A stretch of DNA of 58,986 nucleotides, counting the filler. It is 5 parts of 5 records of this genome, joined end to end, with 100 filler letters (N's around TTAATTAATTAA, not from the genome) between each part and the next. Parts side by side here need not be neighbours in the genome. Positions count along the whole stretch, not along the records: positions 1 to 13,694 come from SRR31156797_18213; 4 more parts are not named here. One strand, 5' to 3'. The notes under the pieces were generated by a model. That model did not search any database. It saw only the letters and a list, made by a program, of their open reading frames with translations, and was not told where the DNA came from. The translations under genes were made by a program, and so were the position numbers. Shown here in pieces: positions 1 to 33,880 of the stretch (within the stretch, counting starts at the first letter, position 1; every line of letters begins with the position of its first letter).

Positions 1-2
1 AG

Positions 3-3000
3 TTGAAAATGGAAACGGCCCTGGAGCGGGCGCTGCTTGTCAATACGGTACTGGGTTCGAACATCGGGTCCCGGGAAGAGCAGTTCGAGGAGGCGTCATC
101 GCGCTTTACCGATCTCGCCGTCGAAACCCAGGACGATGTGAGCGCCGTAGTCGCTTTCGTTCAAAACGCCCTGCGCTCGAGCACCGATGAACGGGGCCGG
201 TCCAGACTGCGGCAGGTTTTGCTCAAAATCCAGGACATCGGCCTTTTGCTGGGAAACCACATGGGGTTGGCGCAACGGACCTTTTTCCTGATCGAAGACG
301 GCGATCAGGGAGGGGCATCGGCCAATCTGCCAGAACTTGAAGACCAACGAATAGAACTGACGGAAAAGATCTCGAACCTGATTTTCGAGGTTGAGGACTT
401 CGCCCGCGATTCGGCACAATCGGTTCTGCAACAGCAGCAGGCCAATCTGTTGATCATGGTCGCCGTGTCGGGCATCGGATTGGTCGTCTGCGTCCTCTTG
501 GGCCTGATCGTCGGCCGCAGCATCGCCGGGCCGATCAGGTCGGTCACCGGCGCCCTCGGCGAACTCGTTCGCGGCAATACGGAAATGCCGCTCAATATCA
601 AACAGGACGGAAGCGAACTGGGGGCGATGGCGGTCGCCTTGCGTGCCTTCCGGGAAGAGATCGTCAACCGGCGCGAAACCGTCGTTGCCTTGGCCGAATC
701 GGAACGGCGCTTCCACGCCCTGGCTGCGCTGTCGCCGGTCGGCGTGTTCTCGACCGACGCCAGCGGCAACTGTCATTACGTCAACGAGATGGGCTGCCGG
801 ATCTCCGGTTTGAGCGCGACGGAAATGCTCGGCCGCGGTTGGACCCGGGCGCTGCATCCGGACGACCGGGAAATGGTTCTGGCGCGCTGGGCGAAGGCAG
901 CGGCCTCGGATGAACCGTTCCGCGCCGAATACCGCTTTCTGAAACCGGACGAATCGATCACATGGGTTATCGGGCAGGCATCGCAGCACAAGGATGTGAT
1001 GGGGAAATCGACCGGCTTCGTCGGCACCATCACCGACATTACCGAGCAGAAAAATGCCGAGGAAGACCTTATAGAATTCGCGCGATCGCGCACCGAACTG
1101 CACCAGATCACCGCCGATCTGGATCTGGCGTTCGAGGAAAAAATCCAGCGCCTGCTCGCCCTCGGATCGAAAACCTTTCACCTGCCGCTGGGCATCGTCA
1201 GCCATATCGAGGACGACACCTACACGGTCGAACATGCGCTCGGCCCCGAAAACGGCACACCGCCGTCCGGGACCACCTTCGCCCTGGGCGAGACCTTTTG
1301 TGTCCATGCGTTCGATGCGAATGGACCGGTCGGCTTCAATAGGGTCGGACAAAGCAACATCCGCACCCACCCCTGTTACAAGAAGTTCGGCATCGAATCC
1401 TATATTGCCTGCCCGGTGGTGGTTGACGGGGAACGGTATGGAACCCTCAATTTCTCGGGCACCGAACCGCGCCCAAAACCCTTTGCCGACGGCGACTATT
1501 CGCTGGTGCAGCTGTTTTCCCAATGGATCGGAACCGAAATTTCCCGCCAGCGCGCGGAAGAAGTCCTCCGGGTCAGCGAAGAGCGCCTGAAACTGGCGCT
1601 GGAAGGCACCGACGACGGATTGTGGGACTGGAACGTCGACACCGGACATTCCTATTTTAGCCCGCGCTGGGAGGAAATGCTGGGATTCGAACCCGGCGAA
1701 ATGGAACAGCGTGTATCGGCCTGGGAAACGCGCATCCATCCCGACGACCATGCATCCATGCGAAGGGCGCTGGACGACCATCTGCAGGGAATCACCGCCA
1801 TCTACGAATCGGAGCATCGGCTGAAAGCCAGGAACGGCGACTGGATCTGGGTGCTGGACCGCGGCAAGGTGGTCGATCGCAGCCCGGACGGGCGGCCGAT
1901 GCGTGCCGTCGGCGCCCATGCCGACATCACGGCGCGCAAACGCGCCGAGGATGCGCTTCGCGAGAGCGAGGCGCGGGTCCGCACCCTGGTCGAAAACATC
2001 ATCGACGGCATCATCACCATCGATTCGGCCGGCATCATCGAATCGGTCAATCCGGCGGTCGAACGCATCTTCGGCTATGACAGTTCCGAAATGCTCGGAA
2101 AAAACGTCAAGATGCTGATGCCGCAACCGCATCGCGACGCCCATGACGAATACCTGAACCGGTACCGCGAAACCGGAAACGCCCGGATCATCGGCTCCGG
2201 CCGCGAGGTCGAGGGACGGCGCAAGAACGGCACCATTTTTCCGATCGATCTTGCCATCAGCGAAATGATGATCGGGGAGCGGCGGGGTTACACCGGTATT
2301 CTGCGCGACATTACGGAACGCCGCCAGGTCGAGCGCATGAAGAACGAGTTCGTGTCCAGCGTCAGCCACGAACTGCGCACGCCGCTGACCTCGATCCGCG
2401 GCGCCCTCGGCCTGATCGTCGGCGGCGCCGTCGGCGATCTCAGCGACAAGGTTCGGGATCTGGTCGATATCGCCTTCAACAACAGCCAGCGCCTGATCAA
2501 CATCGTCAACGACATCCTGGACCTGGAAAAAATCGGCTCCGGGCAGCTCAAGTTCCGCTTCAGAAGAACCGACATGGTGGCAATGGCCCGCAACGCGATC
2601 GCCGAGAACCAGGGCTTCGCGACCGAATACGGCGTTCATTTTGAATTGGCTGAGGAGACCGAATCGGCCCTCGTGCAGGCCGACAGCGACCGCATCAGCC
2701 AGGTCATGGCCAATCTTCTTTCGAATGCCGCCAAATTCTCGCCGGACGGCGAAACGGTCGATATCGTGGTGGAAACCAACGACGGCTGGGTTCGCGTTTC
2801 GGTTCGCGACCGCGGCCCCGGTATCCCCGAAGAATTCCGCGGCCGGCTGTTCGAAAGATTCAGCCAGGCGGATTCATCGGATACCCGCAAGGCCGGCGGT
2901 ACCGGGCTGGGCTTGAGCATCGTCAAGGCGATCGTCGACCATCATGGCGGTCACGTCGGGTTCGACTCGAAAATGGGTGTCGGCAGCGTCTTTTATTTCG

Positions 3001-3830
3001 AGCTTCCGGCGATCAGACCGGACGAAGTGGACAGACCGCCCAAGACCGCGGAAACCCACGGCTCGAACGGACACGTCCTGGTTTGCGAAGACGATGCCGA
3101 TATCGCCAAGCTGTTGGCGGTTCTTTTGCGCCAGGCCGGCATCTCGTCCGATATCGCCCCCGATGGCAAAACCGCAAGATCGCTTCTGGCCGAGCGCCAC
3201 TACGATGCGGCGACGATCGATTTGGTCCTGCCGGAAGAAGACGGCATTTCGCTGATCCGCGCCATTCGACAGAACGAGCGCACCCGGGATTTGCCCGTCG
3301 TTGTCGTTTCCGCCCGGGCCGAGGAAGCCCGCGAGGGCATCGAGGCATCGACGCTTGATATCGTCGACTGGCTGAACAAGCCGATCGACGAGCAACGGCT
3401 GCTTCGGGCCATCGACCTGGCCAGGAACGGCGGTACGAATCGCAAACCCCGGCTGCTTTATGTCGAAGACGATCCCGACCTGGTCGAAGTCGTGACCGCC
3501 GTGGTCTCCGGTTCGGCCGATACCACCATCGCGGCCAGCCTGGCCGAAGCCCGCAAGACGCTGAAACGCGAAACCTTCGACTTGATTATTCTCGATGTCG
3601 GGCTGCCGGACGGATCCGGGCTGGATCTATTGCCGGCACTGGAAAAAAACGATGGCGCGCCAACACCGATAGTTGTTTTTTCCGGCGAAGAAATCGAAGA
3701 AGATATGGTTCAACGGGTCGATGCTGCCCTGGTCAAGGCGAAGACGTCCAATAAGGCGTTGCTGAAAACCATCCAGGAGCTGATCGGTTCGAACGCAATG
3801 CGCAAGGGCAAAGGAGAAAATTCGGCATGA
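3..3830 (+). CDS. Hybrid sensor histidine kinase (TM-HAMP-PAS-GAF-PAS-PAS-HisKA-HATPase-REC-REC), 5'-truncated
   Basis: H-box FVSSVSHELRTPLTSIRG, N-box NLLSNAAKFS, G-boxes DRGPGIP and GGTGLGLSIVK. Two receivers (VCEDD..IDLVLP, YVEDD..LDVGLP). TM segment followed by HAMP. ORF is open at the window edge. Confidence 0.95.
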   Translation: MKMETALERALLVNTVLGSNIGSREEQFEEASSRFTDLAVETQDDVSAVVAFVQNALRSSTDERGRSRLRQVLLKIQDIGLLLGNHMGLAQRTFFLIEDGDQGGASANLPELEDQRIELTEKISNLIFEVEDFARDSAQSVLQQQQANLLIMVAVSGIGLVVCVLLGLIVGRSIAGPIRSVTGALGELVRGNTEMPLNIKQDGSELGAMAVALRAFREEIVNRRETVVALAESERRFHALAALSPVGVFSTDASGNCHYVNEMGCRISGLSATEMLGRGWTRALHPDDREMVLARWAKAAASDEPFRAEYRFLKPDESITWVIGQASQHKDVMGKSTGFVGTITDITEQKNAEEDLIEFARSRTELHQITADLDLAFEEKIQRLLALGSKTFHLPLGIVSHIEDDTYTVEHALGPENGTPPSGTTFALGETFCVHAFDANGPVGFNRVGQSNIRTHPCYKKFGIESYIACPVVVDGERYGTLNFSGTEPRPKPFADGDYSLVQLFSQWIGTEISRQRAEEVLRVSEERLKLALEGTDDGLWDWNVDTGHSYFSPRWEEMLGFEPGEMEQRVSAWETRIHPDDHASMRRALDDHLQGITAIYESEHRLKARNGDWIWVLDRGKVVDRSPDGRPMRAVGAHADITARKRAEDALRESEARVRTLVENIIDGIITIDSAGIIESVNPAVERIFGYDSSEMLGKNVKMLMPQPHRDAHDEYLNRYRETGNARIIGSGREVEGRRKNGTIFPIDLAISEMMIGERRGYTGILRDITERRQVERMKNEFVSSVSHELRTPLTSIRGALGLIVGGAVGDLSDKVRDLVDIAFNNSQRLINIVNDILDLEKIGSGQLKFRFRRTDMVAMARNAIAENQGFATEYGVHFELAEETESALVQADSDRISQVMANLLSNAAKFSPDGETVDIVVETNDGWVRVSVRDRGPGIPEEFRGRLFERFSQADSSDTRKAGGTGLGLSIVKAIVDHHGGHVGFDSKMGVGSVFYFELPAIRPDEVDRPPKTAETHGSNGHVLVCEDDADIAKLLAVLLRQAGISSDIAPDGKTARSLLAERHYDAATIDLVLPEEDGISLIRAIRQNERTRDLPVVVVSARAEEAREGIEASTLDIVDWLNKPIDEQRLLRAIDLARNGGTNRKPRLLYVEDDPDLVEVVTAVVSGSADTTIAASLAEARKTLKRETFDLIILDVGLPDGSGLDLLPALEKNDGAPTPIVVFSGEEIEEDMVQRVDAALVKAKTSNKALLKTIQELIGSNAMRKGKGENSA

Positions 3831-4219
3831 CGGCAAAAAAGCTGGCTCGGATCATGATGGTGGAAGACGACCCCGACATTCAGACCATCGGCAAAATGGC
3901 GCTGGAAACGGTCGGCGGATTTACCGTCGAGGTCTGCGATTCGGGTCGGGACGCCCTTGAGAAAGCGCCGGTGTTCAAACCCGATCTGGTTCTGCTCGAC
4001 GTCATGATGCCGGAAATGGACGGCCCGACCACGTTCAAGGGATTGCGGCAGTTGCCGGAATTCGTCGATACACCGATCGTCTTCTGCACGGCCAAGGCGA
4101 TGCCGTCGGAACTCGATCAATTCCGGGCGATGGGATCGGCGGGCATCATTCCGAAACCGTTCGATCCGATGAGTCTGGCCGCCCAGGTCCTGGAAATCTG
4201 GGAAAAAATCCATGGCTGA
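3827..4219 (+). CDS. Single-domain CheY-like response regulator
   Basis: MMVEDD..LLDVMMPEMDG..CTA..KPF; start overlaps the kinase stop (ATGA). Confidence 0.93.
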   Translation: MTAKKLARIMMVEDDPDIQTIGKMALETVGGFTVEVCDSGRDALEKAPVFKPDLVLLDVMMPEMDGPTTFKGLRQLPEFVDTPIVFCTAKAMPSELDQFRAMGSAGIIPKPFDPMSLAAQVLEIWEKIHG

Positions 4220-6059
4220 TACGGAGGCTGTCCTCGAGGAACGCCTGGCGGCGCTGCGTCTCGGTTTTGTCGAAAACCTGGAGGCTCGATTTACGGCGCT
4301 GGAAAAGGCCGCCAAGGCGATTGCCGCGGCGAGCGACAGTCAGGCGAGCGAAGCGGCGTTGCGGAAACTGCGCACCCAGTCCCACCAGTTGGTTGGATCG
4401 GGCGCCACCTTCGGCTTTCCCGAGATCAGCCGGATATCGAAGGACCTGGAACGGTTTTGCGATGCCCTTATCGCCGCCGACGCCGTACCGGACGCGACCA
4501 GCCAAAAGCGGATTGCCGACATGTTGCAGGCATTGCGCCGGGCCAAGGAAACGTCGGCGGAAGCGGCCGAGGTCAAAGCCGTCGATCTGGACGCCGAACA
4601 GGAGACCGATGAAAAAGAAGCCGCACCATGGCGCGTCCTTCTGGTCGAGGACGACAACGCCCAGGCCCGCGCCGTCATCGAATCCCTGAAAAGCGGACGC
4701 TACGACATCGAACATGTCGATACCGGGAACGCCGCCCTGGCCTCGATCGACAGCGCCGTTCCCGATGCCATACTGCTCGACATGATGCTGCCGGATATCG
4801 AGGGCATCGAAATTCTGCGCCGGGTCGCCGATCAGAAACTGCCCTGCACGGTCATCGTCGTCACCGCCCACGGGTCGGTCAATCTGGCGGTCGAGGCGAT
4901 GCGCCTGGGCGCCTACGACTTCATCATCAAGCCGTTCAACGCAACCCGCCTTCAGGTGACCCTGCATAACGCGCTGGAACACGACCGCCTCAGCCGCATC
5001 GTCGAAACCTATCAGGATCTGGACCGGTCGACCTATTTCGGGTTCGTCGGCAGTTCCCTGCCGATGCAGGCCGTCTATCGCATCATCGACAGCGCCGCCG
5101 GCAGCAAGGCGACCGTCTTCGTATCCGGGGAAAGCGGCACCGGCAAGGAGGTCTGCGCCGAGGCCATTCACCAGAAAAGCCCGCGCAACGGCAAGCCCTT
5201 CATCGCCCTCAATTGCGGCGCCATCCCGAAGGACCTGATGGAGAGCGAGATATTCGGCCACGTCAAGGGGGCCTTCACCGGCGCCGTTTCGGAGCGCGAA
5301 GGCGCGGCGCGGCAGGCCCACGGCGGCACGCTTTTTCTCGACGAGGTCTGCGAGCTCGACCTGACCCTTCAGACCAAGCTGTTGCGGTTCGTGCAGACCG
5401 GGACCTTTCAGAAGGTCGGCGGCGAGCGCCTGGAAGAGGTCGACGTCAGGTTTGTCTGTGCGACCAACCGCGATCCGATCGCCGAGGTCGCAGCCGGCCG
5501 GTTCCGCGAAGACCTGTTTTACCGGCTTCATGTGATTCCGATCGTGTTGCCGCCGTTGCGCGAAAGAGGCGCCGATATCCTGACCATCGCTCAGCAGTTC
5601 CTGGCCGATTTTTCGCGCGAGGAGGGAAAGGTCTTCGAGGCCCTGTCGCCGGAAGCCGAAGCCATCTTCGCGGGTTATCCGTGGCCGGGAAACGTCCGCG
5701 AGATGCAAAACGTGATCCGTCATATCGTCGTCCTCAACGACGGCCCGGTGGTAACCGAAGCGATGATGCCGCCTCCTCTTGGCGACAGCCCCGGGATTCC
5801 GGCACCGGCGATCGCGTTGCCGTCGTCACCGCCTTTGCCGGAACCGATTTCCGGCACCGCCGCCGAAGCCGAAACGCCGGATCCGACCGACGCCATCGCC
5901 GCCGCCATCCGGCCGCTGGCGGATGTCGAGCGCGAGACGATCGAGACCGCGCTACGTCTGTGCGACGGCAACATTCCGAAAGCGGCGCATTTTCTCGGCG
6001 TCAGCGCCTCGACGATCTATCGGAAAAAACAGGGATGGGAAGAACAGGACGGCGTTTGA
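4212..6059 (+). CDS. LuxO-like sigma54-dependent activator with N-terminal Hpt domain (Hpt-REC-AAA+-HTH)
   Basis: Hpt motif SHQLVGSGATFG; REC LLVEDD..LLDMMLP; Walker A GESGTGKEVCAEAIH; GHVKGAFTGA; LQTKLLRFVQTGTFQKVG; HTH CDGNIPKAAHFLGVSASTIYRK. From recall, these segments closely match Vibrio LuxO. Confidence 0.92.
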   Translation: MADTEAVLEERLAALRLGFVENLEARFTALEKAAKAIAAASDSQASEAALRKLRTQSHQLVGSGATFGFPEISRISKDLERFCDALIAADAVPDATSQKRIADMLQALRRAKETSAEAAEVKAVDLDAEQETDEKEAAPWRVLLVEDDNAQARAVIESLKSGRYDIEHVDTGNAALASIDSAVPDAILLDMMLPDIEGIEILRRVADQKLPCTVIVVTAHGSVNLAVEAMRLGAYDFIIKPFNATRLQVTLHNALEHDRLSRIVETYQDLDRSTYFGFVGSSLPMQAVYRIIDSAAGSKATVFVSGESGTGKEVCAEAIHQKSPRNGKPFIALNCGAIPKDLMESEIFGHVKGAFTGAVSEREGAARQAHGGTLFLDEVCELDLTLQTKLLRFVQTGTFQKVGGERLEEVDVRFVCATNRDPIAEVAAGRFREDLFYRLHVIPIVLPPLRERGADILTIAQQFLADFSREEGKVFEALSPEAEAIFAGYPWPGNVREMQNVIRHIVVLNDGPVVTEAMMPPPLGDSPGIPAPAIALPSSPPLPEPISGTAAEAETPDPTDAIAAAIRPLADVERETIETALRLCDGNIPKAAHFLGVSASTIYRKKQGWEEQDGV

Positions 6060-6116
6060 CGGAAATCGCGGGCAATCCGGCGGGGCGCCGCCGTTTCGCG
6101 GCCATCGAATGCTCGC

Positions 6117-6286
6117 AAAAAAAAGTTGGGTCCGGAGTTCTGGGTAGTCTTTGGGGGGGGAGGAGCTCTCCGGACCCACGAGTTTTCAGGGGAAGTCGCG
6201 GTCATTTGTCGACCGCGGATTATTCCACCACCTCCATCAACGTCCGGCCGCTTTGGCCATCGGTTGGCAGGTTAACATCCGTCTGC
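6117..6286 (-). ncRNA. Candidate sigma54-dependent small RNA with C-rich anti-Shine-Dalgarno motifs
   Basis: Predicted start about 12 nt downstream of a -24/-12 promoter. Hairpin CGCGGTC/GACCGCG (6197-6217). Terminal 11-bp stem TGGGTCCGGAG/CTCCGGACCCA (6127-6178) with CUCCUCCCCCCCC in the loop, then 8 U. No convincing ORF. Confidence 0.65.
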
Positions 6287-6296
6287 TCGAATCCTC

Positions 6297-6313
6297 CGCA
6301 AGCCGCGTGCCAA
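6297..6313 (-). promoter_or_regulatory. sigma54 (-24/-12) promoter
   Basis: Minus strand reads TTGGCACGCGGCTTGCG: TGGCAC-N5-TTGC with exact GG-N10-GC spacing. Confidence 0.85.
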
Positions 6314-6393
6314 TTGGCGGCTTGAAGAAAAAACGCGGAAAACCGGGCGTTTTTCGAATCGACGGGCGAACCGTTTCCGACGCAATGCGGGAA

Positions 6394-6433
6394 GCATTTT
6401 GCAAAATGCAATTAATTGTTTTGCTTCCTGCGA
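6394..6433. promoter_or_regulatory. LuxO-type enhancer (upstream activator sequence)
   Basis: TTGCAAAATGCAA at 6399-6411 matches TTGCA-W3-TGCAA and overlaps the palindrome GCATTTTGCAAAATGC. A weaker TTGC-N4-TGC copy starts 22 bp away at 6421. About 90-100 bp upstream of the -24 element. Confidence 0.7.
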
Positions 6434-6560
6434 AATTGCACCGGGCGACGACGCACTCGAAAAAAGTGAAGCCAGCACCGAAAATGGGCCGAATAACGCA
6501 TGAATCCGCGTTTATTAGGGATTTCCCGTATATTTGGCGGGGCCCGAATATGTTTATTAT

Positions 6561-6715
6561 CCGCGTTACGGGAAACGCGGCTTTTAAAGGGCTACAAACC
6601 CAATAAAAAACAAATCGACCATCCAACCCCACCCCTCCGTGCAGGATGGCCTCCGTGTTTCCCCTTTTTTTTCTTTCGTACCCGGGTCGGGCAAGTGCCG
6701 TCCCGGATTTTTTTT
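6561..6715 (+). ncRNA. Second candidate C-rich small RNA (or structured leader) ending in an intrinsic terminator
   Basis: Hairpins at 6561-6580 and 6619-6649 (loop contains CCCCTCC), repeated CCTCCGTG, GC stem at 6682-6706 followed by 8 T. Confidence 0.45.
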
Positions 6716-6822
6716 GCCCGCGTCATCGGTGCCGCCGCGCGCCGGTTTCCCGGCCGACTGTCGGACGCCGCCGTTATTTGATAGAATAGTTCGACCCTTT
6801 ATGACGTCGTGGGAGAGGTCCG

Positions 6823-7671
6823 ATGAAGACGATACTCCTGCCGATGTTTGCAGACACCCCGTCCGATGCCGCCATCGCCGCCGCCCGCGCGGTCGCGTTT
6901 CGATTCGACAGCCATGTCGAAGGGCTTTTCGTTCGCGCCGGCCCGCTGATGGTTCCGCGCGGACCGGTTCCGGTACATTTCCTGGAGCAATACAGCGAAT
7001 ACTGGGATCAAAGCGCCGACGACGCGCGGACCCGTTTTGCCACAGCCATGAACGAATGCGGCATACCGTTCCGCGAGACCGCCGTCGAAACCGAGGGGCC
7101 GACCGCCTGGTGGTGTGAAATGGAAGGCGAGTGGCCGCAGATCGTCGGCAATTACGCCAGGCTGTTCGAACTGACCATTCTGGCTCGACCGTCTGGCAGC
7201 GCCGAGGACGACTGGGGCCCGGTTTCGGAAGCCGCCATTTTCGACAGCGGACGTCCGATCCTGATCGCCGGGGCCGGCCCCATCGACCGCCTTGGAGAAA
7301 CCATCGTCATCGCCTGGAACCGCAGCACCGAAACGGCCCGCACCATCGCCATGGCGATGCCGATGCTGATCGCGGCCCGAAAAGTGATCGTGCTTTCGGT
7401 CGAAGGCGCGACAGGCGGTTCGGTACCGGGACCGCGGGGCGAAATGCTGGCGACGTATCTTTCCCGTGCCGGTGTCATGGCGGAGGCGCAAACGGTCGAG
7501 GCGAACGGAAGATCTTCCGGCGAAACGGTTCTGGACGAGGCCGCGGCACTCGACGCCGATATGATCCTGAAAGGCGCCTACACCCACAACCGGTTGCGCC
7601 AGATGATTTTCGGCGGCACCACCCGCCACATCATCGGCCATTCGGCCCTGCCGGTTCTGATCGCCCACTAA
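6823..7671 (+). CDS. Universal stress protein (tandem UspA domains)
   Basis: MKTILLPM N-terminus; IVIAWNRSTETAR; ILKGAYTHNRLRQMIFGGTTRHII..LPVLIAH; SD GGAGAGG. Confidence 0.9.
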   Translation: MKTILLPMFADTPSDAAIAAARAVAFRFDSHVEGLFVRAGPLMVPRGPVPVHFLEQYSEYWDQSADDARTRFATAMNECGIPFRETAVETEGPTAWWCEMEGEWPQIVGNYARLFELTILARPSGSAEDDWGPVSEAAIFDSGRPILIAGAGPIDRLGETIVIAWNRSTETARTIAMAMPMLIAARKVIVLSVEGATGGSVPGPRGEMLATYLSRAGVMAEAQTVEANGRSSGETVLDEAAALDADMILKGAYTHNRLRQMIFGGTTRHIIGHSALPVLIAH

Positions 7672-7850
7672 GCCGGCCGAACCGGTCCGCGTTCGACCCG
7701 GGGCCGGCCAAAAAAACACCGTTTTCGGTTGTGCCGAAACCCGTCAACAGGCAAAAGAGAGCAGTTTTGTTTCGCGCCGACCGACCGGGATGATCCGGCA
7801 CGGCCGGTCGCGCCTGATCCATCTCAACACCCAGACTCCCAGGAGGCACC

Positions 7851-8576
7851 GTGACAGCAAATACGATCGCCCGTTCGGCTCTCGTAACCGGCGGAACCCG
7901 TGGAATCGGCCGCGCCATCGCAGAAAAACTGCGCGACGAAGGTTGCGCCGTCACCGTCACCGGAACCCGTCCCGACGGGACGGCTCCAGACGGCTGCGAC
8001 TATCTGGCAATCGATTTTTCCGACCGCGACGCCTCGATCGAGTTCGCCGACCATGTCTCGGAAAGGGCCTTCGACATCCTCATCAACAACGCCGGCACCA
8101 ACCGCGTCGGCCCCATCGACGAATACGAACTGGAAGACTTCGAACTGGTCCTGCGGGTCAACCTGATGGCGCCCTTCATGATGTGCCGCGCCGTCATCCC
8201 GGGCATGAAACGCCGGCAGTGGGGGCGGATCGTCAACATCTCGTCGCTTTGGGGTATTGTCGCCAAGGAAAACCGCGCCGCCTACGGTGCCAGTAAATTC
8301 GGAATCGACGGCATGACCGCCTCGGTCGCGGCCGATGTCGCCGAATACGGCATCCTCGCCAACTGCATCGCGCCGGGATTCATCAAGACCGATCTTTCGA
8401 CCCGCCTTCTGAGCGAGGAAGGGCTGGCCAAACTGGCCGCCCAGGTGCCGCTCCGACGGTGCGGAACGGTCGACGAAGTGGCCAAGCTGGTGGCCTTCCT
8501 GGCCGGACCGGAAAACAGCTATATCACCGGCCAGAACATCGTCATCGACGGCGGGTTCATCCGCAGCCGCGGTTAG
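7851..8576 (+). CDS. Short-chain dehydrogenase/reductase (FabG-like)
   Basis: TGGTRGIG, NNAG, YGASK, PGFIKT, YITGQNIVIDGG; SD AGGAGG. Confidence 0.92.
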   Translation: MTANTIARSALVTGGTRGIGRAIAEKLRDEGCAVTVTGTRPDGTAPDGCDYLAIDFSDRDASIEFADHVSERAFDILINNAGTNRVGPIDEYELEDFELVLRVNLMAPFMMCRAVIPGMKRRQWGRIVNISSLWGIVAKENRAAYGASKFGIDGMTASVAADVAEYGILANCIAPGFIKTDLSTRLLSEEGLAKLAAQVPLRRCGTVDEVAKLVAFLAGPENSYITGQNIVIDGGFIRSRG

Positions 8577-8599
8577 GACGGCAATCGCGAGCGAGATCG

Positions 8600-8944
8600 C
8601 TATCGCCGGAACTGAGTGGAAAGCAGGTGCTTGTCCTCTTCGAGTTCGAACATGATGCGGACCCGTTTGGTAACGAGGTCCGCCTCGACTTCGTCGAGGA
8701 CGATGTGCCAGTCGCCCTGGCAGTACTGGTCTAGCCAATCCTCGATGACGTCGACCGGCCGCGCCGTCGTCAACATCACGCCGTACAGCAGGCGCCGCCG
8801 TTCCGATTGGCGCCGGTCTTCTTTTCCCCGGCGCTCCTCGATCCCGCCGCCGTCGTCGCCTTGCCGCCGTTCGTCCCCGATCCGGCGTTCCTTCTTCTTA
8901 CGCCGGTTGCGCAGCAGGCGGCCGATACCCTTGTCTCCGAACAT
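8600..8944 (-). CDS. Hypothetical protein with [DE]RR repeats
   Basis: 114-aa ORF filling the gap between two real genes; ERR/DRR repeats followed by a small acidic domain. Confidence 0.6.
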   Translation of the reverse strand: MFGDKGIGRLLRNRRKKKERRIGDERRQGDDGGGIEERRGKEDRRQSERRRLLYGVMLTTARPVDVIEDWLDQYCQGDWHIVLDEVEADLVTKRVRIMFELEEDKHLLSTQFRR

Positions 8945-9139
8945 TGTCGCTTCCGTCGGTGTGCTTGCAGATCCGATATTATCGCCCGACTGGAATTCGG
9001 CGGCAATGATTTCAACTGCTAAGACGGAATTGGGGCGAACAACAGCCGGTCGCTTTCCTTTTCTTCAAACCGCCAAATCGGCCTATATTCGACTCCGGCC
9101 GCCGCCGACCGGCAATCACAACGTTCGAAATATTGCCCG

Positions 9140-11515
9140 ATGACCGATCAGCCGACCCCCGCCGAAGTTTTCCAGGCCGCCCTGGGACGCCACCAGGCCG
9201 GCGATCTCGAAGGAGCGGTCGTTCTCTACAAGGCGCTGTTGCAGGCCAGCCCGAGAAACCCGCAGGTCTATCACATGCTTGGGCTGGTTTCGTATCAACT
9301 GCAGGACTACGACAATGCCGCCGATCTGATCGGGTTTGCCGTCGAAATCGATCCGGACAACGCCAGCTTCCTGCACAATCTCGGCCTCGCCCATCAGGCC
9401 GCCGGCCGGCTGGAGGAGGCCGAGGCCGCCATCCGCCGCGCCGCCGAGTTGAACCCGGAACGCGACGACGTTTGGAGCAATCTGGGCGCCATCCTGGAAA
9501 AGCGGGGCAATCTGGAAGCCGCCGAGAAGGCGCTTCGGACGGTCATCGAACGGTCACCCGAAGATCCGGTCGCCTTGAACAACCTGGCCGGCGTGCTCAG
9601 GGCCCGCGGCCGTCTCGAAGACGCCGAGACCGTACTCAGCCTGGCGGCCGAAAACCCGGCCTCCCACGCCGAGGTATTCGCCAATCTCGGCAACGTGCTG
9701 GGCGATTTGGGGCGCGACGCCGAAGCCGAAAAGGCGTATCGGCGGGCCGTCGAGGCATCGCCGGATTTCTGGGAGCCGTGGTGCAATCTGGCGGCCCTGC
9801 TGTTGCGCCAGGATAGGCTTGAGGAAGCCGAAATTGCGATACGGCGCGCCATCGATCCGGATATCGGCCGCTGGCAGGTATACCTCAATCTCGGACTGAT
9901 TCTGCAGGCGAAGGCGAACTACAAGGAAGCCGAGCGGGCGTTCCGCCAAGCGGTGCGCCTGAACGAAGACGATGGCGAACTGAAGATCAGGCTCGCCGAT
10001 TGCCTGCGCGCCGGCGGCGAAATCCGCAAGGCAGAAGCCATCCTGTTGAAGCTCGCCGGCGACGATCCGAACAACGCGGCGATCCACAACGGCCTGGCCG
10101 AGGTTTACCGTTTCAAGGGCCGGGTCGATCTGGCGATGGAAGCTTGGCGGCGTGCCGTCGAGCTGAACCCCGATCTGGCCGAGGCGCAATTCGGGCTGGG
10201 ATCCCTTCTGGCGGCCATCGGCGATGCCGGCGGCGCGGTTGCGCACCTTCGCCGGGCCGCGGATCTGTCACCGGGTTCGGCGCGCATCCACAGCAACCTG
10301 CTGATGGCGATGCAATATGACGCCTCCCTGAGCCGAAGCGAAATCGCCGCCGAACACAGGCGCTGGGGCGAACGCCACGGCCCGGCCGCCGAAAACAAAC
10401 CGCCGGCGCGGCCACGAACGGTCAACCGACGCCTGCGGATCGGTTTCGTCTCGGCCAGCTTCCACTTCCATGCCGCCGCCTTTTTCGTTCTGCCCCTGCT
10501 GCAACTGCGCGACCGCGAAAGCTGGGAAGCGGTGTTGTTTTCGGGCGTTACGGATCCCGATAAAACGACCGAGGCCTTCCGGCGCAGCGCCGACCGCTGG
10601 ATCGAGATCGGCACCCTCAACGACGACGCCTTCGCCAAACGGGTCGTCGAGCAGGGCATCGACATCCTGTTCGACCTGAACGGCCATACCCGCGGCACCC
10701 GGCTGCCGGCCTTTGCCCGGCGTCTGGCGCCGGTTCAGGCAACCTGGTCGGACTATGTCGATACGACGGGGCTGCCGACCATGGATTACATTGTCGTCGA
10801 TCCGATCCAGGTGACGGCCGACGACGAGGTCCACTATGTCGAGCGGGTGATTCGTTTGCCGCATGACTATATCTGCTATCGCCCGCCCGACTATGCGCCG
10901 CCGGTCGTCCCCCCGCCGTCGGCGGAAACCGGCGTCATGACTTTCGGATGCTTCAACACGGTCAGAAAACTGAGCGTCGAATCGATCGCCTTGTGGGCGC
11001 GGGTCCTGACGGCATGCCCGACGGCGCGTTTGTTGCTGAGTTCGCCCGAATTCCGTTGGCCGTCGGTGAAGGAACGCTACGAAACCCTGTTCGCCGATCG
11101 CGGAATTGCCGCGACGCGCCTCGAATTCGGCACCGGCGGCGATCATCAGGCTTTCCTGAAGGGTTACGCCGACATCGATGTGGCGCTCGATCCGACCCCT
11201 TATTCGGGCGGTCTCAATACCTGCGAAGCCCTATGGATGGGGGTGCCCGTGGTGACGCTCTACGGCGACCGGTTTTGCGGCCGCCATGCCGCCGTCCATC
11301 TGACCGCAGCCGGATTACCCGAACTGATTGCCGAGAACGCAGAAGAATTTGTCGAAATCGCCGTCGGGCTTGCCGCCGATCCGGCCCGCTTGGCGGAACT
11401 CAGAGAAGGCCTGCGGAGCCGCCTGACGGCATCTCCGCTGACCGACACGAAGTCTTTCGCGGGCGATTTCACGGACCTGCTGCGCCATATGTGGCGACAA
11501 GCCGGAACCGCCTGA
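9140..11515 (+). CDS. TPR-containing GT41 (SPINDLY/OGT-like) glycosyltransferase
   Basis: Many TPRs, then RLRIGFVS, DILFDLNGHT, RRLAPVQ, DVALDPTPYSGGLNTCEALWMGVPVVTL. Confidence 0.9.
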   Translation: MTDQPTPAEVFQAALGRHQAGDLEGAVVLYKALLQASPRNPQVYHMLGLVSYQLQDYDNAADLIGFAVEIDPDNASFLHNLGLAHQAAGRLEEAEAAIRRAAELNPERDDVWSNLGAILEKRGNLEAAEKALRTVIERSPEDPVALNNLAGVLRARGRLEDAETVLSLAAENPASHAEVFANLGNVLGDLGRDAEAEKAYRRAVEASPDFWEPWCNLAALLLRQDRLEEAEIAIRRAIDPDIGRWQVYLNLGLILQAKANYKEAERAFRQAVRLNEDDGELKIRLADCLRAGGEIRKAEAILLKLAGDDPNNAAIHNGLAEVYRFKGRVDLAMEAWRRAVELNPDLAEAQFGLGSLLAAIGDAGGAVAHLRRAADLSPGSARIHSNLLMAMQYDASLSRSEIAAEHRRWGERHGPAAENKPPARPRTVNRRLRIGFVSASFHFHAAAFFVLPLLQLRDRESWEAVLFSGVTDPDKTTEAFRRSADRWIEIGTLNDDAFAKRVVEQGIDILFDLNGHTRGTRLPAFARRLAPVQATWSDYVDTTGLPTMDYIVVDPIQVTADDEVHYVERVIRLPHDYICYRPPDYAPPVVPPPSAETGVMTFGCFNTVRKLSVESIALWARVLTACPTARLLLSSPEFRWPSVKERYETLFADRGIAATRLEFGTGGDHQAFLKGYADIDVALDPTPYSGGLNTCEALWMGVPVVTLYGDRFCGRHAAVHLTAAGLPELIAENAEEFVEIAVGLAADPARLAELREGLRSRLTASPLTDTKSFAGDFTDLLRHMWRQAGTA

Positions 11516-11538
11516 ATCAACCCTCCACCGTGTTCACT

Positions 11539-11730
11539 TCAGGCGCAGCGGTGGCTGCGCGTTTTTTCCGCGCTCTCTTTGGCGTCGGCAAGATCTTTCA
11601 GCGACCGCGCGATCTCGATGCAGCCCAGCTTTTCGTAATAGCGGGCCTTTTCGCGCAGATGACTAACCTCCGTCAAAATGGGAGCGGCGGGCTTTTTGCT
11701 TTGCGAATTGCGATAATCTGCCACGTACAT
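11539..11730 (-). CDS. Small hypothetical protein (63 aa) downstream of a sigma54 promoter
   Basis: MYVADYRN...RSHRCA with AAGAGG upstream of the ATG; alternative near-leaderless ATG at 11760. Confidence 0.5.
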   Translation of the reverse strand: MYVADYRNSQSKKPAAPILTEVSHLREKARYYEKLGCIEIARSLKDLADAKESAEKTRSHRCA

Positions 11731-11771
11731 TCCCAGCCTCTTTGAGTTAAGACTTTTCATGGCGATATCGC

Positions 11772-11788
11772 CGCAAAGCCCGTGCCAA
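11772..11788 (-). promoter_or_regulatory. sigma54 (-24/-12) promoter
   Basis: Minus strand TTGGCACGGGCTTTGCG with exact GG-N10-GC spacing, in intergenic DNA. Confidence 0.8.
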
Positions 11789-11856
11789 TTCGGGAATGGC
11801 ATATTCGGACCGCGATCCGCGGCCGATGACCGGAGCTTGCAGGCAGGAAGGCGGGG

Positions 11857-12708
11857 TTATGCCTTTTTCACGAAGTCTGTAAAGGCGTCGGCATAGTCGG
11901 GGTGCCAGCGCGACAACGGCGGGCGGTTTTCGACGATATCGCCGATCGCCCAAAGCATGCGCTTTTCATCGAGCTCGCGCGGCACGTCGTTATCCGGGCA
12001 CAGGATGTAGAAATCGCCGGCTTCGATGCTTTTCATCATGAAATCGACGGTCTGCTCGGCGGTCCAGGCGCCGGCCGGCTTTTCCGGGCGGCCGTGGGCG
12101 GTCAGCTCGGTGTAGACGAAACCGGGAATCAGCAGGCGGGCGTCGATCCGCGCGCCTTCCGTGTTGCGCAGTTGGTGCTGCAGCGCCTCGGTGAACGCCT
12201 TCACACCGGCCTTGGAAACATTGTAGGCGGGATTGCCCGGCGGCGTCGTGATCCCCTGCTTGGAGCCGGTGTTGATGACAAGGCCGGGCCGGCCCCGTTC
12301 GATCATGCCGGGCAGGAAGACCTGGGTGCCGTGAATGACCCCCCACAGATTGACATCCATGACGCGCTGCCAGGTCTTCGGTGATCCAATGATGTCGTTA
12401 CCTGGCTGGATGCCGGCGTTGTTCATCAGCACGTCGGTGCCGCCGAAGCGATCCCCGACCTGCGCTTCCAGGCGTTCGAGATCGGCGCGGGAAGCGACAT
12501 CGGTCTCGACGGCGAGCACGGCATCCGTTCCCCTGTCTGCCGCCGCGGCGATCCGTTCGGCCGCCTTGGCCAGCCTCTCGGCGCCCAGATCGGCGATGCA
12601 GACGTTCATTCCCAGGCCGGCGCAACGGATCGCCGAAGCGAGGCCAATGCCGGAGGCGCCGCCGGTGATGACGGCGGTCGAACCGGAAACCAGGGCGGGG
12701 TGGATCAT
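11857..12708 (-). CDS. Short-chain dehydrogenase/reductase
   Basis: TGGASGIG, MNNAG, YNVSK catalytic motif; SD AAGGAG. Confidence 0.92.
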   Translation of the reverse strand: MIHPALVSGSTAVITGGASGIGLASAIRCAGLGMNVCIADLGAERLAKAAERIAAAADRGTDAVLAVETDVASRADLERLEAQVGDRFGGTDVLMNNAGIQPGNDIIGSPKTWQRVMDVNLWGVIHGTQVFLPGMIERGRPGLVINTGSKQGITTPPGNPAYNVSKAGVKAFTEALQHQLRNTEGARIDARLLIPGFVYTELTAHGRPEKPAGAWTAEQTVDFMMKSIEAGDFYILCPDNDVPRELDEKRMLWAIGDIVENRPPLSRWHPDYADAFTDFVKKA

Positions 12709-13064
12709 GGCGGCGTCTCCTTGCGTTTTGCTTTGCTGTCGTCGAATTCGGGCGGCAGCGGCGTTGGCATACCGGCAAAGTTTATACCTGTCGCCGCGGC
12801 CGTCGTCAGCTTTCGCAACCTGTCACTATATTTTAACGGGGATCGTTCCCGCCGAAGGATTAATTATGGTCGGCCATTGGGAATGGCTGTCAGGGTGCGA
12901 AGCGGTTTTGGGCTTCACGGCGACGCCTTTCGGGTGTTGAATAAAGGGGTCCGGATCTCGCCCGTCCGGGCTCGACGCCCCCCATGCAACGAAACTCACG
13001 CAGCACCGGCTCCGCCTGCGGTATCGGTGGTGTTTTTCTATTGAGCGTTCGGAGGAGGGATATC

Positions 13065-13694
<630 letters not shown>

Positions 13695-13794
13695 NNNNNN
13701 NNNNNNNNNNNNNNNNNNNNNNNNNNNNNNNNNNNNNNTTAATTAATTAANNNNNNNNNNNNNNNNNNNNNNNNNNNNNNNNNNNNNNNNNNNN
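13695..13794. other. Artificial contig-joining spacer
   Basis: N44-TTAATTAATTAA-N44 (stops in all six frames); composition changes across it. Confidence 0.98.
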
Positions 13795-13795
13795 C

Positions 13796-14350
13796 GAATC
13801 CGGTCTCGGTAGTGCTCCTATCGCTGCTGCCGCAGCTCAGACCAAGCAGCCCGTAACTCAGGCTCTGGTCTCCATGACCCAGACCTTCATCGATACCATC
13901 ATCGTCTGTACCATGACCGGCCTCGTCCTGATCCTCACCGGTGCTTGGTCCAGCGGTGCCACCGGCGCAGAACTGACCACCATCGGTTTTGGTGCAGGCT
14001 TCAGCGGCGGCGAACATGTTGTAACCATCGGCCTGATCCTTTTCGCCTACTCTACCATCCTCGGCTGGTGCTACTACGGTGAAAAATCCATTGAATACCT
14101 GTTCGGCGTAAAAGCTGTACTGCCCTACCGCCTCGTATTCATCTGTTTCGTAGGTGTCGGAGCCATCGCAAAGCTCAGCTTCGTATGGAACCTTTCCGAT
14201 ACCTTCAACGGTCTCATGGCTATCCCCAACCTTGTCGGCCTTCTGCTGCTGACTCCGGTTGTGGTCTCCGAAACCAAGAAGTACTTCCAAAAACAGGAAG
14301 AAAAATCCTCAAACATGGAACCCTCCGCTGTTACTGAAACTAAAAAATAG
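13796..14350 (+). CDS. Sodium:alanine/glycine symporter (AGCS family), 5'-truncated
   Basis: Frame reads [49 protein letters not shown]. Confidence 0.92.
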
Positions 14351-27713: not shown

Positions 27714-28820
27714 CTAGTAGAGCTGCTCGAAAATGGTCTTGAGGTCGCTGATGCTGGGGAGCCTCGGGGTACCTTCGGTGCAGGGGTCTTCCAGGGCATT
27801 GGCTGCCATGGTGGGAATGGCGGCCGTGTAGTCGGCCTGCTCTACGCCAAGATCCTTGACCCGGCTGGGGATACCCATCTGCTCGTTGAGCCACTCGATA
27901 CCATGGACAAGGCTTGTGACACCTTCGTCAATGGTGGCCGAGGGCAGGCCCAGGAGGGCCGCGATGGAGCGGTATTTCTCACCTGCGTCAAAGGTGTTGA
28001 ACCGGATTGCGTGGGGAAGTACCAGGGCGTTTGCCTTTCCATGGGGAACGTGGAACGCGCCTCCCAGGGCATGTGCGACACTGTGGCAGATGCCGAGGCC
28101 CGCATTGTTGAACGCCATGCCGGCCATGCATGATGCAAGGAGCATCCGCTCCCGTGCTTCCATGTCATCGCCGTTGCTGTAGGACCGGGCCAGGTACTTG
28201 AACACGTACTTGATGGCCTGTTCCGCATACAGGTTGGTGAAGGCGTTGGCCTTGCGGGCGGTGTAGGCTTCGATGGCGTGGGTGAGAACATCCATGCCCG
28301 TTGCCGCCGTTACCGAGGCCGGAACCGTCCGTGTAAACCGGGCATCGAGGACCGCCATGTCCGGAATCATGAGCTCGTCCACCAGGGGGAGCTTGATCCC
28401 TTTGTCCGTATCCGTTACCACCGAGAACGCCGTCACCTCGGAGCCGGTGCCGCTGGTGGTGGGAATGGCCACCAGGATCGGCTTCTTGCCGTGGGGCGCT
28501 GCCTTGTAGCAGAAATAGAGGATGGCTTTTGCCGTATCGATGGCAGAGCCGCCGCCCAGGGCGATGATCACGTCCGTGGCGTCATCCATTGCAAGCATTC
28601 CCTGTTTAACGGTGTTCAACGATGGGTCCGGCTCCACGTTGCCAAAAATGGTATAGGCGATGTCCGCCCGTTCAAGATGGCTGACGATTCTTTTCGAAAA
28701 GCCGGTTTTGACCATGAAGGGATCTGTGACCAGGAGTGCGTGCTTTGCCTCAAGGGTCTCAAGCACCTCCATGGCGTTTTTATCATAACAAATTTTCGTT
28801 TTTCCGTTAAACTGTGTCAC
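27714..28820 (-). CDS. Iron-containing alcohol dehydrogenase (EutG/PduQ-like)
   Basis: ALGGGSAIDTAK, IPTTSGTGSEVT, GMDVLTHAIEAY, GICHSVAH..HGKAN. Confidence 0.92.
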   Translation of the reverse strand: MTQFNGKTKICYDKNAMEVLETLEAKHALLVTDPFMVKTGFSKRIVSHLERADIAYTIFGNVEPDPSLNTVKQGMLAMDDATDVIIALGGGSAIDTAKAILYFCYKAAPHGKKPILVAIPTTSGTGSEVTAFSVVTDTDKGIKLPLVDELMIPDMAVLDARFTRTVPASVTAATGMDVLTHAIEAYTARKANAFTNLYAEQAIKYVFKYLARSYSNGDDMEARERMLLASCMAGMAFNNAGLGICHSVAHALGGAFHVPHGKANALVLPHAIRFNTFDAGEKYRSIAALLGLPSATIDEGVTSLVHGIEWLNEQMGIPSRVKDLGVEQADYTAAIPTMAANALEDPCTEGTPRLPSISDLKTIFEQLY

Positions 28821-28852
28821 TGGTACTTCCTTTGATTCTTTATAAATTTAAA

Positions 28853-29305
28853 CTATTGATTACTCCAGTTTGCCGGATAGGTCACGTACATGAACCGTGT
28901 TGAATCCGGAGTGCTGAAGGTCACTGAGGTGTTCATGGGAATAAAGATGATTTCACCTTTGCTGGCAGTGCTTTTAACGCCGTCAACAGTGATTTCCAGG
29001 GTGCCGTCGATGATGTAGTCCACCTCGTCATACCCAAGGGTCCAGTCAAAGGCCGAGCCCTCTTTCATCTCCATGATGCCAAACATCATTCTCGGGCTCT
29101 CCTCGAGGGTGACTGCATCCTTGAGAAAAACCTGGTCTCCGGGCTTGCCCGTATCAAACCGCTCGGTCTGCACGGCAGGCGCCTTTATGGTGATCACACC
29201 GCTGTTCCTGTCAATGGTTTTGGTTTCGTCTGTCCGGCAATTTGCCAGCTGTTCGGAAAGAACCTTGCGGATGAGATTTTCAAGTGTTTTTTCATCAATA
29301 TTCAT
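28853..29305 (-). CDS. eutQ: Ethanolamine utilization cupin protein
   Basis: FDWTLGYDEVDYIIDGTL..FMYVTYPANW; N-terminal encapsulation-peptide-like helix. Confidence 0.88.
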   Translation of the reverse strand: MNIDEKTLENLIRKVLSEQLANCRTDETKTIDRNSGVITIKAPAVQTERFDTGKPGDQVFLKDAVTLEESPRMMFGIMEMKEGSAFDWTLGYDEVDYIIDGTLEITVDGVKSTASKGEIIFIPMNTSVTFSTPDSTRFMYVTYPANWSNQ

Positions 29306-29360
29306 ATTAAACCTCGCTTTCTACAACAAACCGTTTACATGTGTCAATGACAATCCATGG

Positions 29361-29405
29361 GGTCGGGCTTTCTTATTGAAAAAAATACAATAAAAAAGCC
29401 CGACC
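29361..29405. other. Long intra-operon stem-loop
   Basis: GGTCGGGCTTTCTTATTG-N9-CAATAAAAAAGCCCGACC (18 bp, 1 mismatch) downstream of a shell gene. Confidence 0.65.
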
Positions 29406-29469
29406 ACCGTTATCATGATCACTTCAACTGACTTCAGGTGATCAGACCTCTCTTATAAGGCAGCCGCCG

Positions 29470-29748
29470 CTACTCTGCTGTGCAGGAGGGGAGGATACCT
29501 TCGACGTCGGTGTGGGGTCTGGGGATGACGTGGATGCTGACCAGCTCGCCCACCCGGTCGGCTGCGGCAGCGCCTGCGTCGGTTGCAGCCTTGACGGCGC
29601 CTACATCACCCCGGACCATTACCGTTACAAGACCGCTTCCCACCTGCTCACGACCGATGAGTTTTACATTGGCGGCTTTTACCATGGCATCTGCAGCTTC
29701 AATGGCTCCGACCAGTCCTTTTGTTTCGATCATTCCCAATGCGTTCAT
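29470..29748 (-). CDS. BMC-H hexameric shell protein (EutM/PduA-like)
   Basis: [47 protein letters not shown]. Confidence 0.96.
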
Positions 29749-29766
29749 AATACCTTACTCCTTATG

Positions 29767-30126: not shown

Positions 30127-30130
30127 AGTT

Positions 30131-30679: not shown

Positions 30680-30955
30680 TTAGTCGCCCATCCCTGTTTC
30701 AAGTTCATCTATGATGCCCACGATGGTCGCATCGATGGGCGCATCTGCCTGGCCGCATGCGTTCCTGGCCGAGCTGCCCGTTGCCACAAGGACACGGTCT
30801 CCGATACCGGCCCCGACAAAGTCCGCGGCCACAAAACTGTCTGTCTCGGTTTGGTTGCACACATCCAGCCGCCGTACGATCATCAGTTTTACGCCGTTGA
30901 GGGCCTCATCCTTGCGGGTTGCCCACACACTTCCCAATACCTTGCAAATAATCAT
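30680..30955 (-). CDS. eutN: BMC-P vertex protein (EutN/CcmL)
   Basis: KVLGSVWATRK..DFVGAGIGDRVL..GSSAR..IDATIVGIID. Confidence 0.93.
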   Translation of the reverse strand: MIICKVLGSVWATRKDEALNGVKLMIVRRLDVCNQTETDSFVAADFVGAGIGDRVLVATGSSARNACGQADAPIDATIVGIIDELETGMGD

Positions 30956-30965
30956 TGAACCACCC

Positions 30966-33874: not shown

Positions 33875-33880
33875 GGCCGG

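Follow-up and report, generated by a model that had tools for sequence, protein, structure and literature searches.

What is encoded on the minus strand at positions 6117-6286 of the window, the whole stretch of 58,986 nucleotides (nt) analysed here, and what would switch it on? An earlier note had proposed a discrete small RNA (sRNA) of ~170 nt that exposes C-rich anti-Shine-Dalgarno (anti-SD) motifs; Qrr was named there only as a model for scanning, and three elements were overlooked: a sigma-54 promoter, a LuxO box and a LuxO-like phosphorelay next door. When these elements are taken into consideration, the region is very probably an sRNA gene controlled by sigma-54 and a LuxO-like activator. 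The best explanation, to which a probability of about 60% is assigned, is a sigma-54-dependent, trans-acting sRNA of ~170 nt that serves as the output of a phosphorelay and carries an anti-SD loop. The regulatory half of this reading comes from the sequence, its conservation and published Vibrio data, and the pairing half from the composition of the loop and alphaproteobacterial precedent. The elements of the candidate gene are the following.

6399..6411, palindromic (no strand assigned): LuxO box TTGCAAAATGCAA, which reads TTGCATTTTGCAA on the minus strand; putative upstream activator site
6298..6312, minus strand: sigma-54 (-24/-12) promoter TGGCACGCGGCTTGC, an exact TGGCAC-N5-TTGC
6117..6286, minus strand: candidate sRNA, ~170 nt, with the start placed by promoter spacing and the 3' end by the U8 tract
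6187..6235, minus strand: extended stem-loop, from centroid structures and base-pair probabilities
6127..6178, minus strand: terminator hairpin with an 11-base-pair (bp) stem, UGGGUCCGGAG/CUCCGGACCCA, and a 30-nt loop
6117..6124, minus strand: U8 tail of the putative intrinsic terminator, by direct reading; AC precedes U8

The -24/-12 consensus of sigma-54 promoters is TGGCAC-N5-TTGC. Two exact matches were found in the 59-kb window against 0.13 expected, and none of 100 shuffles reached two; at up to one mismatch there was no enrichment (5 matches, 4.14 expected). The usual spacing between sigma-54 promoters and their starts predicts initiation at ~6286, which equals the boundary given in the earlier note. 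The LuxO box is the one exact match to TTGCAW3TGCAA in 59 kb and the sole match even when one mismatch is allowed (0.49 expected), and its centre lies at about -119 relative to the predicted start. In V. cholerae, the LuxO sites identified by chromatin immunoprecipitation sequencing are ttgcaaaatgcaa at qrr1, ttgcattttgcaa at qrr3 and ttgcaatttgcaa at qrr2/qrr4 (PMC10328515, Table 1), and the box in the window is letter-for-letter identical to the qrr1 and qrr3 sites as they appear in that table. According to PMC11443567, the LuxO boxes of V. fluvialis occupy positions between -89 and -120 relative to the start sites of its qrr genes, a range within which -119 falls. The second exact promoter, TGGCACGGGCTTTGC, is located at 11773-11787 (minus strand), ~70 nt past the stop codon of an SDR gene. 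Next comes a small open reading frame (ORF) at 11539-11802 (minus strand), of which the listed 87 amino acids (aa) span the promoter itself and internal starts would give MKSLNS... or MYVADY.... There is no LuxO box near this promoter, which implies a different activator.

The protein that would act at the box is encoded next to the candidate sRNA, together with the genes of a putative phosphorelay.

3..3830, plus strand: hybrid sensor histidine kinase, HAMP-PAS-GAF-PAS-HisKA-HATPase-REC-REC in Pfam, with several PAS domains
3827..4219, plus strand: single-domain receiver, 130 aa (Pfam Response_reg, E 1.9e-23), with a stop codon that overlaps the start of the next gene
4212..6059, plus strand: Hpt-REC-Sigma54_activat-HTH_8 enhancer-binding protein, 615 aa (Pfam)

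The 5' end of the kinase gene is probably cut by the window edge. The activator has the make-up of a sigma-54 enhancer-binding protein, in which a receiver and a Fis-type HTH accompany a GAFTGA-bearing AAA+ domain. Its AAA+ domain matches Pfam Sigma54_activat with an E value of 1.2e-65, GAFTGA, GESGTGKE, the Walker motifs and the context of the receiver aspartate are present, and the HTH ...SASTIYRKK... / GNIPKAAHFLGVSASTIYRKKQGWE can be read in the sequence. The best NCBIfam model was LuxO_transreg_Vib (NF041946), with 625.1 bits over residues 145-611, followed by ntrC with 390.5 bits, and the best PDB match was LuxO (5ep0, E 2.8e-145, versus 3.2e-95 for NtrC1). The HTH and its recognition helix are nearly invariant among the alphaproteobacterial and Aeromonas LuxO-like proteins. 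The activator is termed LuxO-like, and not LuxO, because 625 bits is below the LuxO equivalog cut-off of 800, still 235 bits above ntrC.

The logic of the locus may be analogous to the path from hybrid kinase to LuxU, LuxO and qrr, with the role of LuxU fused onto the LuxO-like protein. From these elements we infer transcription, its dependence on the LuxO-like protein, the phosphate route, the pairing to ribosome-binding sites and any role of Hfq. The hybrid kinase would pass phosphate to the fused Hpt of the activator and then to the activator's receiver, after which the activated AAA+ protein would bind the TTGCAW3TGCAA box at about -119 and open the sigma-54 promoter at 6312-6298. Transcription would stop at the 11-bp/U8 terminator, ahead of the stop codon of the convergent activator gene. 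The resulting RNA would most likely base-pair: its C-rich, G-poor loop CUCCUCCCCCCCC would mimic the 16S anti-Shine-Dalgarno and block the GGAGG-type ribosome-binding sites of target mRNAs, and a second C-rich motif would be masked in cis by a G-rich segment. That the RNA acts as an anti-SD repressor is put forward tentatively, at slightly under even odds.

A homologous locus permitted a comparison of these elements. A genome scan with the activator yielded 581 confirmed stretches, from which a set of 80 loci was retained (81 sequences with the window). Only one of the 80 covers the activator query from residue 1, that is, in its Hpt-fused form. This locus, L001, is a contig of a Rhodospirillales metagenome-assembled genome (MAG), and its activator shares 61% protein identity with that of the window. 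The gene order is the same in both (kinase, REC, Hpt-activator, RNA, Usp and SDR, with Usp and SDR on the far side). The corresponding features of L001 are as follows.

2982-6983: kinase orthologue, 1333 aa, with the same domains as the kinase in the window
6980-7372: receiver gene, 130 aa
~9391-9232: homologous RNA, convergent as in the window, with a predicted start at ~9391

The RNA of L001 has the promoter TGGCATGCGCCTTGC, the terminator stem CGGGUCCGGAG/CUCCGGACCCG, a 21-nt loop, CCAUCCUUCUCCCCCUUUGCG, and U5. Of its two LuxO boxes, centred at about -124 and -105, one is exact and the other departs from the consensus at one position. Promoter and terminator stem are separated by 134 nt in the window and by 132 nt in L001. 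Identity between the two sequences is distributed along the locus as follows.

LuxO box: 12/13 identical
Spacer between box and promoter: 31/86 identical (36%)
Promoter: 13/15 identical
5' part of the RNA: 26/58 identical
Middle stem-loop: 22/49 identical
Terminator arms: 10/11 identical in each
Terminator loop: 11/30 identical

As judged from this alignment, selection is visible on the regulatory DNA and the terminator and is much weaker on the RNA body. The sole change in the terminator arms, from the window to L001, is a compensatory replacement of a U-A pair by C-G. Both terminator loops are about half C and have just 2-3 G, so that the C-rich loop described in the earlier note is kept in kind, and G-poor, in L001.

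A short mRNA for a small peptide would occupy the same interval. Two minus-strand ORFs overlap the sRNA, at 6017-6205 (62 aa) and 6220-6411 (63 aa), and a GGAGG-like segment is found upstream of the AUG at 6205. However, the 62-aa ORF crosses the terminator, comparison of the window with L001 revealed no conservation of the ORFs (E 0.7-1.5), L001 lacks an AUG at the aligned place, the indels in the alignment are not multiples of three, and no Pfam match was obtained for 6237-6632 (minus strand) or 6151-6606 (plus strand). A peptide-coding message is hardly credible in view of these results. The conserved promoter and terminator, together with the unconserved ORFs, support the discrete sRNA of ~170 nt that had been proposed, and 6117-6286 is best read as a non-coding transcript of that kind.

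The letters described in the earlier note (a hairpin, ACUUCCCCUGAAAAC, an 11-bp stem, a 30-nt C-rich loop and U8) are all present on the minus strand. Little structure is predicted in the 5' part of the RNA. Downstream of it, a hairpin, CGCGGUC-GACAAAU-GACCGCG, is formed at 6218-6197 (minus-strand letters), ACUUCCCCUGAAAACUCG is placed between this hairpin and the terminator stem, and the stem pairs 6178-6168 with 6137-6127 over 11 bp with 100% complementarity. The 30-nt loop is AGCUCCUCCCCCCCCAAAGACUACCCAGAA, which carries CUCCUCCCCCCCC at 6165-6153, and its probability of being unpaired is 0.84 in the window and 0.73 in the 21-nt loop of L001; the loop is thus predicted to be exposed in both homologues. 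Folding gave a different result for the second C-rich motif. The segment ACUUCCCC had been described as single-stranded, whereas CUUCCCCU (6195-6188) is predicted to pair mostly with the G-rich segment GGAGGUGGUGGAA (6235-6223), around the hairpin at 6218-6197. The mean probability of being unpaired is 0.27 for CUUCCCCU, and values of 0.25 and 0.27 were obtained for the extended stem-loop. The counterpart in L001, UUUUCCUU, has a mean value of 0.17, and GGGGAAA/UUUUCCU forms the analogous pairing. Exposure of the anti-SD motifs, as claimed before, is therefore predicted for the terminator loop and not for the second motif.

Two features of an intrinsic terminator, an 11-bp GC-rich stem and U8, are present, but the loop is not short (30 nt, and 21 nt in L001), and a consensus terminator scan limited to loops of 3-8 nt reports nothing at this hairpin. 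The activator gene converges on the sRNA, with its stop codon 68 nt from the terminator hairpin and 58 nt beyond the 3' end of the RNA. This arrangement raises another explanation, in which the hairpin is mainly a (bidirectional) terminator of the activator gene and the sigma-54 promoter serves feedback in cis, through interference or a read-through antisense RNA. The convergent layout is conserved in the window and L001, the hairpin 68 nt past the activator stop lies between an A8 run and a T-run, a 30-nt loop could make termination incomplete, and feedback on luxO is a known theme among Qrr RNAs. On the other hand, an 11-bp GC-rich stem followed by U8 should halt most transcripts ahead of the activator gene, just TTTT follows the stem on the plus strand, and a discrete RNA would account for the conserved distance from promoter to terminator and for the presence of a C-rich loop in both homologues. 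Feedback in cis as the main function is accordingly regarded as improbable.

Several results weigh against the preferred reading, an sRNA that is the output of the phosphorelay and acts through an anti-SD loop. The C-rich word CTCCTCCCCCC is not rarer than chance, with 1 match at up to one mismatch against 1.2 expected. A loop of 30 nt is atypical for an efficient terminator. Besides the score of the activator below the equivalog cut-off, its N-terminal 140 residues gave no LuxU-specific match in NCBIfam or PDB, and only the generic Hpt of Pfam. The sRNA body is ~45% identical between the window and L001, compared with 36% for the spacer. There is no long conserved seed, because the loop is identical at just 11 of 30 positions, and support from covariation amounts to one base pair, because there are two sequences (n = 2 gives almost no covariation, and MAFFT misaligns the middle stem-loop of this pair). 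The target searches belong here too. When the loop and the CUUCCCCU region were compared with 25 start regions in the window, no target stood out from the background, and the loop was also within background against the start regions of the genes shared by the two loci (4 in the window, 5 in L001). The best pairing with a ribosome-binding region among these shared neighbour genes was -18.3 kcal/mol, with the 5% tail at -20.9 for the loop of the window and -18.0 for that of L001. The folding z-scores, -2.0 and -2.5, are modest. By themselves the C-rich word and the z-scores are weak; the evidence for an sRNA gene consists of context and conservation.

The loop was also compared with every 60-nt stretch of the window. 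In the best non-self match, 30 nt at 33520-33550 (plus strand) are complementary to nearly the whole loop; its energy of -37.4 kcal/mol exceeds that of the runner-up by 7 kcal/mol. This site is antisense to the gene at 33080-33874 (minus strand), and the match was judged coincidental.

Membership in a known RNA family was raised as one possibility in the earlier note, with ar14/Cuckoo, AbcR and MmgR/suhB as candidates. Rfam at gathering thresholds found nothing at the sRNA locus in a scan of the whole window, and no family, including Qrr, ar14, AbcR (ar15) and suhB, was found at E<=10 on either strand of 5900-6800. In L001 there was no Qrr at E<=10, and the only scores were noise (ar7, 16.6 bits against a gathering threshold of 60; 6C, 19.1 against 47; Atu_C7, 11.5 against 45). 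No Qrr was found at gathering thresholds in nine loci, including those of Enterovibrio, Grimontia and Aeromonas, and hence the scans are without a positive control. Such membership is not supported by these scans. A divergent member of Cuckoo/ar14, AbcR/ar15 or MmgR/suhB, with the LuxO-like context being incidental, could still be imagined. The window resembles Cuckoo RNAs (ar14/RSs0680) in its C-rich, anti-SD-like loop, in which CUCCUCCC equals 8/9 of the motif CCUCCUCCC, and in its alphaproteobacterial host, Rhodospirillales-like by the names of relatives. Cuckoo RNAs, as described in PMC4615179, consist of 2-4 adjacent hairpins with CCUCCUCCC in each loop. This architecture is absent here: one loop, that of the terminator, bears the 8/9 match, the other loops are GACAAAU and AAAGC, and the motif is lost in L001. 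In addition, neither the window nor L001 has an Rfam match, the scores of L001 being far below gathering, and the conservation of the box and the promoter argues that the context is not incidental. This possibility is considered very unlikely.

The G-rich segment that is predicted to mask the second C-rich motif may have another partner. A second candidate sRNA is encoded divergently from the first in both loci.

~6562-6716, plus strand (window): second candidate sRNA, with a core at 6616-6663
9640-9785, plus strand (L001): second candidate sRNA, with a core at 9686-9733

The two cores are identical at 48 of 48 positions. In each, the stem CCAUCC/GGAUGG closes a C-rich loop, AACCCCACCCCUCCGUGCA, and this hairpin is in turn enclosed by a long-range helix, GGGAAACGCGG/CCGUGUUUCCC, both arms of which are invariant. 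At the 3' side there is U8 and then a further hairpin and U8 (6682-6716), and L001 has a different terminator hairpin and U7. The conserved blocks located upstream, TTAGGGAWTTCCCG and a -10-like TATTAT/TAGTAT, suggest that the second sRNA has its own, non-sigma-54 promoter. It has no Rfam match at E<=10.

A different role for the first RNA can be considered, as a sponge or partner of another RNA or a protein. In particular, its conserved G-rich segment would bind the C-rich loop, invariant between the two loci, of the second sRNA (6616-6663), and the LuxO-like pathway would switch the second RNA off. The pairing has a predicted energy of -22.4 kcal/mol in the window and -25.4 kcal/mol in L001, at homologous positions, and in each locus the genes of the two RNAs lie side by side and diverge. 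Equally good segments are uncommon: 16 other clusters at or below -22.4 were found in 28 kb of strand in window positions 1-14000, and 4 other clusters at or below -26.2 in 23.4 kb of strand in L001. Nevertheless, pairing between G-rich and C-rich segments is cheap at 61% GC, and chance would supply it at ~10% (window) or 3-4% (L001) per 170 nt, which makes it no more than suggestive. A partner in cis, CUUCCCCU, is already predicted for the G-rich segment, and the full-length duplex is equalled by mononucleotide shuffles in 21/100 cases in the window and 2/100 in L001, in a crude model that ignores intramolecular structure. A sponge is deemed unlikely, and the preferred reading continues to be a trans-acting sRNA with an anti-SD loop.

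The distribution of the parts among relatives was also analysed. A protein search with the activator scored 8000 sequences, of which 120 were listed. The Hpt domain is present in 21 of these 120, at 58-84% identity, and the named sources are uncultured Rhodospirillales MAGs. Judged from the names of relatives, the host would be a Rhodospirillales-like alphaproteobacterium. Unfused LuxO-like proteins among the matches listed share ~60-65% identity over 77% of the activator query. A tblastn search of plasmids with the activator gave 623 records at E<=1e-60, and none of the 25 listed reaches the Hpt part (coverage begins at residue 116 or later); a blastn search of plasmids with window positions 5900-6700 gave no match.

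A two-sequence nhmmer profile of the RNA, run over the 80 loci and the window, found no further homologue or paralogue. A descriptor that combines a sigma-54 score of at least 10/12 with a terminator within 300 nt gave three sites in the 81 sequences, and the strict sigma-54 pattern over all loci together with the descriptor scan left, apart from the window and L001, a single site that is unrelated and belongs to L032. This is a sigma-54-like site, AGGCACGTAAAGTGCT, at 4435 (plus strand) in L032 of Enterovibrio norvegicus, with a 9-bp hairpin and a U-rich tail at +183; it lies ~2.5 kb upstream of the LuxO-like match and has no Rfam Qrr at gathering.

LuxO boxes have a wider distribution, with 24 matches in 19 of the 81 sequences. 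Ten of the 24, in nine sequences, are within ~350 bp of the ends of LuxO-like genes (coordinates read by eye). In five cases it is the LuxO-like gene itself that has the box upstream, at a distance of ~86-114 bp: at 6913 in L004, 2656 in L009 and 4902 in L049, which are Magnetovibrio-type loci, and at 6887 in L028 and 6903 in L034, which are from Aeromonas. This location suggests autoregulation. In others it stands ahead of a sigma-54-type promoter, which belongs to a response-regulator gene in three loci (L027, 1947; L046, 6635; L075, 3370) and to an epimerase-like gene in one (L058, 9538). As read from these loci, the LuxO box goes with the LuxO-like family well outside Vibrio, and a candidate RNA output was seen, among the fetched loci, with the Hpt-fused activator only.

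The composition of the window is mixed. GC content is ~61% in 1-14 kb, the block that includes the sRNA locus, 39-49% in 14-27 kb, 54-60% in 28-48 kb and 34-41% in 48-58 kb. This may reflect islands, a chimeric assembly or joined contigs, and distant genes may possibly come from other genomes. Elsewhere in the window, a bacterial microcompartment cluster at 27714-36970 (minus strand) includes three BMC shell genes and genes for a PduL-type phosphotransacylase, an aldehyde dehydrogenase, an Fe-alcohol dehydrogenase, a cobalamin adenosyltransferase and an actin-like ATPase. Positions 46791-48230 encode a DDE transposase. The low-GC block contains a SAM-II riboswitch at 54191-54249 (minus strand), which scored 61.8 bits against a gathering threshold of 44, and the window end cuts a tRNA at 58941-58986 (plus strand).

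Qrr RNAs are the textbook case of small RNAs through which a phosphorelay computes. In the open-access literature that was searched they are described for Vibrionaceae only, and nothing was found there on an sRNA of the LuxO type in Alphaproteobacteria, Rhodospirillales and Azospirillum included. The locus appears to keep the DNA side of that circuit, with a LuxO-like activator, an identical 13-bp box at the corresponding distance and sigma-54, together with an RNA unrelated to Qrr. If this is true, either such circuits tolerate an exchange of their RNA component, or their transcriptional wiring is retained while the RNA changes until it is no longer recognisable. A search recipe for such RNAs follows from it: a box, a -24/-12 promoter and a terminator beside LuxO-like genes. 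The protein-coding outputs in L027, L046, L058 and L075, as opposed to an RNA output, would offer a natural comparison within the LuxO-like family. A bolder proposal, which we consider a long shot, is that a LuxO-sigma-54-sRNA module exists beyond Vibrionaceae, in uncultured Rhodospirillales with a LuxU-LuxO fusion, where an unrelated C-rich sRNA stands in for Qrr and its G-rich arm titrates the C-rich loop of the second sRNA. Such an arrangement would be a two-RNA switch on one phosphorelay.

How does the locus compare with known systems? The activator resembles Vibrio LuxO in its best NCBIfam model, its best PDB match and its conserved HTH, and it is 55-60% identical to LuxO-like proteins of Aeromonas, Enterovibrio and Alphaproteobacteria among the matches listed; it differs in scoring below the equivalog cut-off and in having an extra N-terminal Hpt. 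Other sRNAs are dependent on sigma-54 and an enhancer-binding protein, such as GlmY/GlmZ with GlrR, CrcZ with CbrB and NrsZ with NtrC. The candidate shares with them the transcription, here predicted, of an sRNA from a -24/-12 promoter by an enhancer-binding protein as a two-component output, but the activators and sites are different and the RNAs are unrelated, none of them having been matched in the Rfam scans.

The comparison with Qrr brings out differences in the RNA and its surroundings. The candidate does not match the Qrr covariance model, which combines sequence and a four-stem structure, at E<=10. Its length is ~170 nt, whereas Qrr RNAs have roughly 100 nt, and its putative seed is a short C-rich loop instead of the long conserved pairing region of Qrr. 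The candidate is convergent with and downstream of the activator gene, while Qrr is divergent and upstream. Here the Hpt is fused to the activator, and the kinase has PAS/GAF sensors in place of known autoinducer receptors. Qrr RNAs pair with luxR/hapR-type and aphA mRNAs with the help of Hfq, whereas no LuxR/HapR-type target was identified for the candidate, which comes from an alphaproteobacterium. The likenesses are found in the control of the gene. The candidate has a sigma-54 promoter and a LuxO box, TTGCAW3TGCAA, at about -90 to -120, it would be the output of a hybrid-kinase/Hpt/LuxO relay, and it ends in a predicted intrinsic terminator. Its gene adjoins a luxO-like gene, as qrr1 adjoins luxO according to PMC11443567. 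Because the sigma-54 promoter, the LuxO box and the LuxO-like phosphorelay occur together, the candidate sRNA can be regarded as a putative regulatory analogue of Qrr.

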